From Candidatus Tenderia sp. (GTDB taxonomy: Bacteria > Pseudomonadota > Gammaproteobacteria > Tenderiales > Tenderiaceae), in contig JANOSY010000056.1 of assembly GCA_031416075.1 (NCBI GenBank), forward strand, positions 1 to 64,000: a stretch of DNA of 64,000 nt, in the 5' to 3' direction. Shown here one piece after another: positions 4,748 to 18,433 of the stretch. The position numbers were made by a program, and so were the translations under genes. Each line of letters begins with the position of its first letter. Positions within the stretch are counted from its first letter, which is position 1. The notes beneath the pieces were generated by a model that had not been told where the DNA came from, made no database searches, and saw nothing but the letters and a program-made list of their open reading frames with translations.

Positions 4748-6092
4748 TCAGGTATCCCCCACTGCGCCAACCCTTGTGAATTCTGCGGTGAGGATGTGGA
4801 TGGTGTCACGCCCGGCCCAGCCATCAAGGGTGTCGCTGATGGCAGCGACATCGCCGAGGGTGAAGGTGTCGTCCCTGTTGCCGCCAATCAGGTTTTTAAT
4901 GCCGCTGAAGTTGATGGTGTTGCTGCCGGTGGTGGTGATCTTCCCCGCATCGCTGCCACTGATTAACCAGCTGGCAATCTCATTTCCACCGCGCAGAGTA
5001 TCGTTGCCACCACCACCGCTGAGATCAGCGATGGCGAGACCGGCGGCGTTGAGGTTAAAGCGATCATTACCCGCGCCACCATTAAGGGTACCAGCGATGG
5101 CTGTGGCGAGGTCGAAGGTATCATTACCGTTGCCACCCTTGAGCGTGATGGTGACAGTGTCATCACCGATATTATCGCCCGCGCGGATGGCACCGTTGGC
5201 GGTAGCGGTAAAGGTGCTGTCACTGTTGCCCTGACCAAAGTTGAGCGCCAGGGCAGTGGTGACGGGGCTGGCGGCCAGGCCATCGCTGCCGATGCCTTCG
5301 ACTCTCCCGCTCACGGTGAGGTGGCGATCGGTATTGACGGTGAGACTGCCCGCCACGCTGATGTTGTTGAGCGTGGTGGTGGCGGCGCTGTTCTTCACCC
5401 ATGCGTCAGCCAGGTAGCCGTCCGCACGGCTCAGGTTGATGTTGCCTTGCAAACTGTTGTTGTTGGCGAGGTTGATTTTTCCATCCATGGCGGTGGAGGT
5501 GATGATGGTCGCACCAGTGACGGTCAAAGTGTCATTGGTGCTGCCCTGTTGAATGCTGAGATTGTCACCGTTTTTACCGGCGGTGGTGATGTTTAATTGC
5601 GCGACCGACATCTTCACGAGCAGCGTGGTGCCCGTCATGTTGAGGGTAGCGTTGCCACTGCCGGTGTTGATGGATACGGTTCTGCTAGCGGAGGAGGCGG
5701 CGCTGTAGTTAACGCCCGTCACATTGAAATCGCCGCCACGGGTATCAACTGTAAGATTTGCGGCATTATCAACCACAACATTGCCCGTACCGTTGTTATC
5801 CCGGTCGGCGTTTACATTGACCGATAGTGGCCCCGTGGCGGCAATGCCGCCGTAGAGGGAAATGTGATCACCGGCATTCAGCGTGAGCACGCCTGTAGCA
5901 CTGGCGACCGCCGAATAAAAATTTACACCGCCGCCATTGCTCGCCGTCACGGTCAGATCACCGCCAAGGTTGAGAGTATTGACAGTGCTACTGTTTCTAA
6001 CAAAGGTAATGTTGCCCGTCGTGGTGCCTGTGCTGCCATCGGCATTCACCTCCCGTGCACCCACGGTGGTGATGGTGGTGGCATCCTGCCGA
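4748..6092 (-). pseudogene. Internal fragment of a large beta-helical adhesin with RTX-like GGxGxD repeats
   Basis: Thr/Gly/Asn-rich sequence with GGNGNDTF, GGAGNDRF, GGGGNDTL, GGNRDDTF and GWAGRDTI repeats. No native start; fused at about 6093 to the truncated transposase. Confidence 0.75.
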
Positions 6093-6436
6093 CAGCTGGC
6101 GTTCACTGCGAATAGTGAAAAGCACCTGAAGCATCTGGGCCCTCAGTAACCGCCCTGGCGGAATCGATTCGCGACCATATTCTGAATAGGCACCATGCCC
6201 AAAGCGCTTCGCGGGGCCCTCAAGCAGCCAGCTGATGCGTTTCAGGGCCTCGTTGAATAAAGTGCGAATTGGACATAGTGGGTGGTTCTTGGGGACGAAG
6301 GTTTCGAGGTGAACCGTGGTGAACAGGGATTCTTGAGTAATATCTGCGCCGCGCATTTTTGGATCTTGGGTTGGGGATTGTCGGTGACGGTAGTCTACAG
6401 GGGGCAATGATGGCGCGGTAGTTTTTCAACAGCCTG
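6093..6436 (-). mobile_element. Truncated IS5-family element: left end plus N-terminal ~88 codons of the transposase (ATG at 6356)
   Basis: Terminal TTAA|CAGGCTGTTGAAAAAC. Translation MRGADITQESLF...VPKNHPL.PIR...GRESIPP..LLRA..LQVLFTIRSERQL is typical of the IS5/DUF772 N-terminus and breaks off after RSERQL. Confidence 0.85.
6196..6217. repeat. 22-nt mini-hairpin element, copy 1, in frame inside the transposase
   Basis: TGCCCAAAGCGCTTCGCGGGGC; 19/22 identical to 18361-18382. Confidence 0.7.
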
Positions 6437-6469
6437 TTAAGAACCCACATCCTCCTCATCGCTATAACT

Positions 6470-17049: not shown

Positions 17050-18342
17050 ATGGCAAAAGAGATATTTGTACCTGATATTGGCGACTTCAAAGAAGTTGAA
17101 GTGATCGAACTGCTGGTCGGCGTGGGGGATACCATCCAGGCCGACCAGTCACTGATCTCGGTCGAGTCTGACAAGGCGGCGATGGAGATCCCGGCCCCCG
17201 AGGCGGGTGTGGTCAAAGAGCTGAAGATCAAGATGGGCGATCGCATCTCTAAAGGTTCGCTGATCCTGTTGCTGGAGCCTGCTGCCAGCGAGGAGAGTGC
17301 TGTTCCGGTTTCCCAGGCACCCGCGCCAAAGGTTGAAGCAGCGCCTGCTGCGGCAGCGGTACCGGCACCAGCCAAACCTGCCGCGCCTGTTGCAGCAGCC
17401 CCCGTGCGTCAATCCCCTACCGCTCAGATCGACGAGACCGGTTTTGCCAAGGCCTATGCCAGCCCCTCGGTACGCAAGTTTGCCCGCGAACTGGGGGTTG
17501 ATCTCGGCAAGGTCGATGGCACTGGTCGCAAAGGTCGTATCACCCATGAAGATGTGCAGAACTTCGTCAAACGTGTCCTCAGTCAGCCCGCCGCGGCGGG
17601 TGGTCTGGGTGTGGCGCCGATGCCCGATATCGACTTCAGCCAGTGGGGCGCTGTTGAAAGCAAGCCACTCACCAAGATCAACAAGCTCACCGGCCAGTTC
17701 CTCCACCGCAACTGGGTCACCGTTCCCCACGTCACCCAGTTCGACGAATCCGACATCACCGACATGGAGAGCTTCCGCAAGGAGATGGCCGAAGAGTACA
17801 AGGCCAAGGGGATCAAGATCACCCCGCTGGTATTTATGATGAAGGCGGTGGTCTCGGCAATGAAGCAGTACCCACGTTTCAACTCATCACTCGATGCGAC
17901 GGGTGAAAATCTGATCATGAAGAGCTACTTCAACATCGGTATCGCGGTGGATACGGCGGACGGCCTGGTCGTGCCGGTGGTGCGCGATGTCGATCGCAAG
18001 ACGCTGGTGGATCTGGCGGTGGAGTTGGGTGAGATCAGCGCCAAGGCCCGTGACAAAAAACTCAAACCCGGCGACATGCAGGGTGGTTGCCTGACCATCT
18101 CCAGCCTCGGCGGCATTGGTGGCACCAAGTTCACGCCGATTGTGAACGCGCCGGAAGTGGCGATTCTCGGCGTCTCGCGCGCCAAGATGCAGCCGGTCTG
18201 GAACGGCAAGGAGTTTGAACCACGCCTGATGTTGCCGCTGTCACTCTCTTACGATCATCGTGTGATCGATGGTGCCGACGGCGCCCGCTTCACCTCGTTC
18301 CTCAGCCGCGTCTTGTCTGATACACGTCGTCTGCTGCTGTAA
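17050..18342 (+). CDS. aceF: Dihydrolipoamide acetyltransferase E2 with a single lipoyl domain
   Basis: Lipoyl motif ESDKAAME, E3-binding [16 protein letters not shown] and catalytic DHRVIDG. Confidence 0.97.
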
Positions 18343-18352
18343 TTTGTAGTCT

Positions 18353-18391
18353 GGAGAGCCTGCTCAAAGCACTTCGTGGGGCAGGCTCTCC
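18353..18391. repeat. Intergenic palindrome enclosing copy 2 of the mini-hairpin element
   Basis: GGAGAGCCTGC (18353-18363) and GCAGGCTCTCC (18381-18391) form a perfect 11-bp inverted repeat. The inner sequence is TGCTCAAAGCACTTCGTGGGGC. No U-tract follows. Confidence 0.75.
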
Positions 18392-18433
18392 AAGCTAGAC
18401 GACTGATGTAAGTGGCCAGATAGGGAGCACTGT

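Follow-up and report, generated by a model that had tools for sequence, protein, structure and literature searches.

Small dispersed repeats (SDR1–8) of Nostoc and related cyanobacteria are reportedly 21–27 nt long, and an RNA intermediate is said to have been proposed for them. Rickettsia palindromic elements (RPEs) measure ∼100–150 bp. IS200/IS605 insertion sequences (ISs) insert 3′ of a short target without duplicating it, and the donor is resealed exactly. Their movement is strand-specific and takes place on single-stranded DNA (ssDNA), and RAYT enzymes cut ssDNA at CT or CA, 5′ and 3′ of a hairpin (sections of PMC8266576). RPEs typically lie in frame in functional host genes (a passage of PMC3733652), and SDRs are cited in passages of PMC3116915 and PMC3733652. 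Here we analyze a 64,000-nt stretch of Candidatus Tenderia sp. DNA (the window; contig C56 of G000, a metagenome-assembled genome (MAG) of 3.49 Mb in 95 contigs from freshwater sediment runs) and describe element E, a 28-nt sequence with two copies in the window, one shortened within an IS5-family IS and one full-length after an aceF-like gene.

Results

Element E and its two copies in the window

E comes and goes as an exact block. It sits directly 3′ of a purine-T dinucleotide, and the target is not duplicated; it enters copies of itself, builds head-to-tail arrays, and is nearly identical across distant gammaproteobacterial lineages of several orders. It is very probably a genuinely mobile micro-element. 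The original prediction, a mobile palindromic element of 22–24 nt, had been drawn from two 22-mers, TGCCCAAAGCGCTTCGCGGGGC at positions 6196–6217 and TGCTCAAAGCACTTCGTGGGGC at 18361–18382. Both are present, with 19/22 identity and the three differences that had been described (CGC/GCG to CAC/GTG and GCCC to GCTC), and with up to three mismatches the first 22-mer occurs at 2 places in the window when compared to a mean of 0.00 in 100 shuffles. Aligned copies define a family unit of 28 nt, RCCCAAAGCRCTTCGYGGGGCAGGCTCT, that starts with RCCC and ends with CTCT; a length of 24 nt is true of the first window copy, which is shortened. The degenerate 20-mer proposed with the prediction gave 12 matches in G000 vs. 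0 for the reversed control, and 35 matches when three mismatches were allowed. E with two mismatches gave 20 matches vs. 0 for the control, and an nhmmer profile search gave 29 hits at an E-value below 0.01. The interpretation as a mobile palindromic micro-element is supported, because G000 holds ∼29 copies rather than only two, and a paralogous copy of the same IS lacks exactly the 24 nt of the first copy.

The first copy (GCCCAAAGCGCTTCGCGGGGCCCT, 24 nt, plus strand) lies at 6197–6220, with 6196–6219 equally valid and a T on both sides. On the minus strand it encodes GPAKRFGH within a transposase, as predicted: open reading frame (ORF) 5997–6407 (minus strand; ...LLEGPAKRFGHGAYSEYGRESIPP) reads ...NHPLCPIRTLFNEALKRISWLLEGPAKRFGHGAYSEYGRESIPP... 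and matches Pfam DUF772 (E-value 4.8e-05). A paralog on contig C17, found by tblastn of this ORF against G000, reads ...ISWLLD--------SAYSEYGRESIPP. The distance between PLRPIR and GRESIPP is 21 aa in the paralog and 29 aa in the window, exactly the spacing that had been claimed, and the proposed 24-nt frame-preserving insertion appears as a single clean 24-nt gap in the DNA alignment of the two copies. On C17 the IS is complete (∼1.3 kb), and other copies of it lie at contig ends. The window copy is a relic, a truncated 5′ fragment at 6093–6440 (minus strand) that stops after ∼107 codons and is 86% identical to the full copy (positions 264–587 of the query cut from C17). In high-depth contigs of runs X2 and X3 (sediment metagenomes), 2+4+18 nt are left out at 6194–6219, and these contigs are most simply explained as the multi-copy empty IS. 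The nhmmer match of the first copy covers profile positions 1–21 only, and the 3′ tail AGGCTCT of the 28-nt consensus is replaced by CCT. The in-frame state was seen once, in a dead IS fragment; full 28-nt copies break any frame that they enter.

The second copy (GCTCAAAGCACTTCGTGGGGCAGGCTCT) is full-length (18362–18389, plus strand; nhmmer E-value 7.6e-08, profile positions 1–28) and starts 20 nt past the stop codon (18340–18342) of an aceF-like 430-aa ORF. The same-genus genome G003 (locus L138) shares the spacer and the ORF downstream of it, with one clean 51-nt gap between conserved flanks; the block absent from it, at 18344–18394 (plus strand), consists of TTGTAGTCTGGAGAGCCT, E and CCAAG. 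Three other same-genus genomes carry unrelated DNA after aceF. No empty allele of the aceF site was found in contigs of runs X2, X3 and X5, which bridge E without a gap. Together with its left flank, this copy would form an extended hairpin at 18352–18392 (plus strand), in which GGAGAGCCTGC pairs with GCAGGCTCTCC at the end of E, giving a 14-pair outer stem plus a 3-pair inner stem. The ssDNA fold of 18350–18393 reached −14.8 kcal/mol (z −5.18), and 0/200 shuffles folded as well. The extended hairpin is probably a REP-like (repetitive extragenic palindromic) stem-loop or a terminator after aceF. An 886-aa ORF precedes the 430-aa ORF and a 582-aa ORF follows it; from their sequences, we read the three as likely aceE, aceF and lpd.

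Around the first copy, IS homology ends at ∼6093, and an unrelated ORF (4748–6106, minus strand; 452 aa) continues and runs straight into the IS fragment. Its product is repeat-rich and rich in Gly, Thr and Asn, and gave no Pfam match. A single deletion or rearrangement seems to have truncated both the ORF and the IS fragment. Positions 1–138 of the window belong to a further copy of this IS5-family IS and represent its 3′ end (99% identical). At least nine contig ends fall within the IS (among them those of C30, C76, C39, C18, C95, C46, C4 and C50), and it is therefore multi-copy and breaks the assembly.

Target site, empty sites and repeated insertion

The target was analyzed with 144 pooled copies that fell into 73 flank clusters, taken as independent contexts (loci L017–L136 plus G000); the L loci, and the set of 124 copies used below, derive from the matches listed in a search of one genome per species. 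T precedes E in 67/73 contexts, a purine is found at −2 in 70/73, and C or G follows E in 58/73; nothing else is conserved. Logos, also when split by the first base of E, revealed no longer target motif than purine-T and a mild C/G preference at +1, and no target duplication was found in the empty sites. The first base of E was compared with the −2 base: G-T was followed by A in 29/35 contexts, and A-T by A in 16 and by G in 18 (p 0.002).

Exact empty sites are known for four hosts, namely the IS5-family IS, a MITE (miniature inverted-repeat transposable element), an IS6 and an IS30. Nested copies of E in E are found in G000 at C50, C66 and C26. Tandem arrays, with three E plus a variant at the IS6 site and period-28 pairs in G002 and G004, suggest that the mark of the site lies 5′ of the insertion point.

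In G041, a genome with long contigs, each of the 15 E copies is hosted by an IS6, and 14 are located within C9:631–782 kb. When up to three mismatches were allowed, 10 of these E copies were perfect, 5 had one mismatch and none had two or three, in IS6 hosts that are 66–86% identical to the query copy. In an alignment of 11 IS6 copies, site A was filled in 5 and exactly empty in 5; for site B, 3 copies were filled, one of these with a 36-nt variant, and 6 were empty. All four filled/empty combinations of sites A and B occur, which requires a repeated gain, an exact loss or a recombination at least once. Among the empty copies is an intact gene of 227 aa (DDE_Tnp_IS240), and in a doubly filled copy all three segments are open. 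The surrounding stretch, G041:C9:494000–813000 (loci L183–L212), holds ∼40 diverged IS6-family copies or fragments in ∼300 kb, nearly all in one orientation, and a similar E-rich stretch lies at G043:C1:47–118 kb.

Such clustering could also arise if E were mainly a passenger that entered a few ISs and a MITE once each, multiplies and passes between genomes with its hosts, and spreads among related IS copies by homologous recombination or gene conversion instead of transposing by itself. One IS-rich region holds 15/15 of the G041 copies and 13/14 of the G043 copies, ∼12/38 of the G000 hits belong to one MITE family, and G041 is without an intact Y1 gene, all as this account would have it. The flanks of the filled IS6 copies of G041, however, are by our reading no more alike than those of the empty copies and differ even at the −2 base, and E with 0–1 mismatch sits there in hosts of only 66–86% identity. 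At least 40/73 contexts are unrelated singletons, new insertions are required for self-nesting and for tandem arrays, and the insertions into REPs and the aceF spacer have no homologous donor context. We consider it unlikely that E is mainly a passenger.

The MITE is palindromic and ∼165 nt long, with the ends GGGAACCTCTGAATAA and TTATTCAGAGGTTCCC, often TAA-like flanks, and copies that are 77–94% identical (C24:156722–156900, C33:20240–20410, C45:15460–15630 and ∼20 more in G000). Shared flanks occur in 13/38 E hits, and most of these sit in its left arm. A search with the right arm gave 27 hits, of which, by reading, 8 carry full E and 1 a degenerate E; at least 8/27 are exact empty copies (CCGT^TCGTGG), and 3 copies have a 12-nt stump that corresponds to a deletion between two CTTCGTGG repeats. 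An E-carrying version of the same MITE is also present in another MAG (L092). Other copies lie in REP-like repeats directly after GTAGGGT, and one lies ∼30 nt upstream of a glnS-like start. Landing in both coding and intergenic DNA, as had been proposed, is borne out by copies in intergenic DNA, transposase genes, the MITE, REPs and E itself. None of the 29 copies of G000 was found in an identified host gene when the frames were read, with the inspection restricted to the longest frames.

E in transposase genes

E was found at the same nucleotide in diverged copies of a given transposase gene, for the IS30, IS6, IS3-type, IS256, IS66 and IS5 types. The 124 copies group into contexts that recur, and a Pfam scan of the 48-residue flanks identified rve, rve_2, rve_3, Transposase_mut, DDE_Tnp_IS66 and DUF772, and one further context looks, by our own reading of its sequence, like an IS91-type C-terminus. 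In the rve, rve_2 and rve_3 contexts (five loci), E always splits the codon pair G^AY AAT (Asp-Asn). Across host genes, E occurs in either orientation and in all three codon phases, and most E-bearing IS copies in G000 are truncated relics. At C70:9300–9500, an IS30 relic with E is cut off by a sequence that translates like the left end of the C45 IS200-type element (GKPPALPGDS.RFDL...), which suggests an IS200/IS605 insertion there.

The IS30-like N-termini of G000 have E between the codons for ER(Y/C)Q and IY in 4/4 cases; the four proteins are mutually 37–45% identical, and the inserts measure 26, 28, 28 and 29 nt. An empty IS30 site is seen in relic L255, of another sublineage. One ∼1.1-kb IS30, each time with E at an identical site, is present at different loci in G000, G001 and G004, and homology is limited to the IS, so that the unit moves together; the divergence of E among the three copies (1–2 of 28) is about that of the IS, and both points agree with E being carried along by its host. 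In the G004 copy, another E is nested within the first one. Downstream of E, all 308 codons are intact in 3/3 species, and the ratios of nonsynonymous to synonymous divergence (dN/dS) of the E-bearing IS30 are 0.26, 0.19 and 0.17 at dS of 0.09–0.36, values that would be unexpected if E kills the gene. The 13 codons before E show two changes only, both synonymous. Two readings of this selection remain: (i) E entered each copy separately and recently; or (ii) the gene works with E, via exact excision or a downstream start.

In another explanation, E would be a working part of the host element or the cell, such as an exactly excisable switch or a leader with an alternative start that throttles the transposase, and would be kept by selection instead of by spread alone. 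Apart from the low dN/dS at dS up to 0.36 and the intact IS30 frames, it could account for the IS6 copy with two E whose frame is otherwise open throughout, for the IS30 orientation, in which E ends TTG GGY in frame with the gene and is preceded by GAAG, for the strong stem-loop made by the aceF copy, and for the E close to the glnS start. A working part would not be expected in both orientations and all three codon phases, with inserts of 26, 28, 29 and 56 nt at one IS30 site, or in truncated relics for the most part; intact E-free copies exist, and the purifying selection could predate separate recent insertions. We regard a working part as improbable.

Hairpin and possible removal in RNA

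Among the 124 copies, the R..Y pair of the predicted hairpin is A..T in 67, G..C in 51, A..C in 5 and G..T in 1, and thus Watson–Crick in 118/124. Position 1 of E, opposite a fixed C, is A in 83 and G in 39 of the copies. The exceptions are G⋅T pairs on the reverse strand, a hint that the structure forms on this strand. The folding energy of E alone is −0.8 to −4.9 kcal/mol (z −0.1 to +1.4 vs. shuffles). The suggestion that the element is selected for its structure has one covarying pair behind it, and the hairpin folds no better than shuffles; from the covariation at that single pair, a hairpin is plausible. A permissive search of five E-bearing loci against Rfam 15 gave three unrelated matches (E-values 0.29–0.86, far below gathering), none on E.

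A further possibility is that E is removed or skipped in RNA, as a tiny intron or by ribosomal bypass or frameshift, and that the interrupted transposases are still made. The purifying selection on E-bearing IS30, the 5:1 excess of A..C variants (G⋅T or G⋅U on the reverse strand) over G..T, and an A at position 1 in 83/124 copies, which gives a wobble pair on the reverse strand, would be in line with it. E nevertheless lies in both orientations within genes, the frame offset is inconsistent (26, 28, 29 and 56 nt), and the window remnant is in frame after a 4-nt loss, as expected if E is translated. Removal in RNA appears hardly credible. The CCCAAAG heptamer as a frameshift or bypass signal was rejected: its direction is wrong for an insert of 28 nt, and take-off and landing codons that match are absent. 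Readings of E as a dif/Xer site, attC, transposon-end footprint or CRISPR were dropped on anatomy only.

Distribution of E

E with two mismatches was detected in 11/16 other genomes of the same family, comprising 4/4 other same-genus genomes (13 to 43 copies) and 7/12 genomes of other genera, and in 0/24 genomes of other families of the class; the reversed control gave 0 in every genome searched. With the exact 23-nt core and one genome per species, at least 120 stretches were found in many gammaproteobacterial lineages. Among the matches listed are Halioglobus, Zhongshania (type strain), Cycloclasticus, Candidatus Tenderia, Exilibacterium and Thiobacillus, together with members of the Chromatiaceae, Ectothiorhodospiraceae, Kangiellaceae, Porticoccaceae and Thiotrichaceae and one Planctomycetaceae MAG.

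A blastn search of a plasmid collection with three tandem E copies gave no match, and the exact 23-mer gave 0 matches in viral contigs. Four 17-mers of E, both strands, had no match in the 8.4 million paper texts searched, and word searches of the literature returned only works on REPs, REPINs and MITEs or citing SDRs. At marine MAG loci L025, L039, L047, L072, L090, L095, L101, L102 and L108, E lies inside short repeats (CTTCGTG / CTCTGTGG, then GGTTAAAAA), which resemble the E core CTTCGTGG and also the spacers after aceF in G005 and G010.

Search for a mobilizing enzyme

G000 gave 8 Y1_Tnp matches, namely IS200-type TnpA, canonical RAYTs and a 232–237-aa Y1-like protein with two full copies and one broken copy. 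None of the 8 is on the contig of the window, in agreement with the earlier statement that no mobilizing enzyme lies there. A RAYT protein search gave 6 matches in G000 and up to 11 in a relative. RAYT and other Y1 genes, whose co-occurrence with E had been proposed as a check, lie elsewhere in G000, but none could be tied to E. The long Y1-like (235-aa) protein is present in 11/12 E-positive and 1/5 E-negative family genomes, a weak co-occurrence (one-sided Fisher p 0.0099 by hand calculation; 17 related genomes, several incomplete). Regions between E pairs contained no autonomous partner: G000:C24 has ordinary genes there, and 9 regions of G001, G002 and G004 gave no hint of one.

The RAYT loci L153 (G000) and L155 (G011, of another genus; RAYTs 76% identical) are flanked by a 36-nt E variant. 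Pairs of 28-nt E and terminal repeats were absent from the RAYT flanks. At L153 (C87:270–1115), a canonical RAYT gene of 176 aa lies between inverted GTAG-headed REPs, and the variant (GCCCAATACACTCGCTCCACTCGCGGGGCAGACTCT) sits at CAAT^AAGC in the loop of each REP; L155 has the same arrangement. An empty REP lies at C87:270–306, 150 nt away.

Discussion

We favor, as probable on balance, the explanation that E is a 28-nt non-autonomous mobile DNA element that is moved in trans and spreads inside ISs. An enzyme supplied in trans would move E at the DNA level, and the likeliest type would be a single-strand HUH/Y1-type nuclease, an assignment that we offer tentatively and with some doubt. Such a nuclease would cut after NT on both sides of the hairpin, at RT before E and at CT at its end, and the flanks would be resealed exactly, as by IS200/IS605 and RAYT enzymes. 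HUH chemistry would fit the anatomy of E (RT before, CT at the end, exact empty sites), as a resemblance and not a proof. Between taxa, E would travel inside occupied ISs.

Several findings besides the selection on E-bearing IS30 weigh against this explanation. No mobilizer of E was identified in the searches described. The 28-nt E was near only 1/30 RAYT loci of the family, and canonical RAYTs, present in 10/12 E-positive and 4/5 E-negative family genomes, do not track with it. The co-occurrence with the long Y1-like protein is based on 17 genomes that are related and in part incomplete; the only Y1 sequence of G041 (15 young copies) is a broken fragment, the long protein had no match in G001 (18 copies), and the flanks of the long Y1-like gene have neither inverted or terminal repeats nor E copies. 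The hairpin of the G..C type is weak (−4.5/−4.9 kcal/mol, z near 0), that of the A..T type is not the minimum-energy fold, and the covarying pair has two main states only, which could represent two lineages. Targeting of hairpin loops is unsupported: 29/73 empty sites compare with 32% of 1500 random RT^S sites (p 0.16), with equal mean fold energy. A 2-nt target, finally, cannot explain repeated insertion at one nucleotide of IS6 or IS30.

In a bolder version, to which we give little weight, E would be a homing-like parasite of parasites that specifically enters the most conserved transposase codons of many IS families, is exactly removable and acts as a reversible brake on transposition. If so, its hosts would stay functional (IS30 with E has dN/dS ∼0.2 and moves as a unit between species), and E would be a bacterial counterpart of the 26–30-bp sequences that ciliates eliminate, handled by a class of enzymes for which no link to substrates of this kind has yet been made.

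On the usual view, mobile DNA depends on an enzyme gene of its own or at least on both ends of an enzyme-bearing element, and E has neither. How so small a sequence finds its target, and whether it controls or exploits other mobile elements, are questions that follow, and they are testable at the bench, since the matches listed include a cultured carrier, the Zhongshania type strain. In practice, E will mislead gene callers and IS annotation in environmental genomes, because it interrupts or extends the reading frames of transposases and adds stem-loops downstream of genes.

When compared with known systems, E differs from CRISPR in being dispersed, and its adjacent copies abut at period 28 without a spacer. 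It differs from MITEs in having neither terminal inverted repeats nor a target-site duplication, and is a passenger in the ∼165-nt MITE. Like RPEs, E is a palindromic repeat inside reading frames, and the window copy adds 8 residues in frame; unlike in RPEs, the full 28-nt E breaks frames, and none of the 29 G000 copies is in an identified host gene.

E shares with IS200/IS605 elements the insertion 3′ of a short target, the absence of a duplication and the exact empty sites. It differs in having one weak hairpin rather than two subterminal ones, a target with only 2 conserved nt, a length of 28 nt and no linked TnpA found. It resembles the REP, REPIN and RAYT systems in being short, GC-rich and imperfectly palindromic, in having intergenic copies downstream of genes and possibly in a single-strand HUH mechanism with cuts at NT beside the hairpin (compare sections of PMC8266576). 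Unlike REPs, E is without a GTAG/CGTC head (any GTAG belongs to a host REP), has only ∼29 copies, is not species-specific and alone has no thermodynamically stable stem-loop; it inserts inside REPs and inside the coding DNA of mobile elements, and RAYT genes are not flanked by it.

By analogy, E seems to work most like the SDRs of cyanobacteria, and then like REPs and gene-less IS200/IS605 derivatives. It would share with SDRs, as these are reported, (i) a tiny size (28 vs. 21–27 nt), dispersal and the lack of an encoded enzyme; and (ii) a hairpin with compensatory changes, self-nesting, and copies in mini-transposons and heptamer repeats. By the definition reported for SDRs, E would be of their kind, being 28 nt long, nested, present in a MITE and Watson–Crick at 118/124. 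The Nostoc repeats, in contrast, belong to another phylum and reportedly to one coherent subgroup, whereas E spans several gammaproteobacterial orders and repeatedly occupies fixed codons in transposase genes that represent at least six Pfam transposase types. What is new in E is its identity across orders together with its fixed sites in transposase genes.

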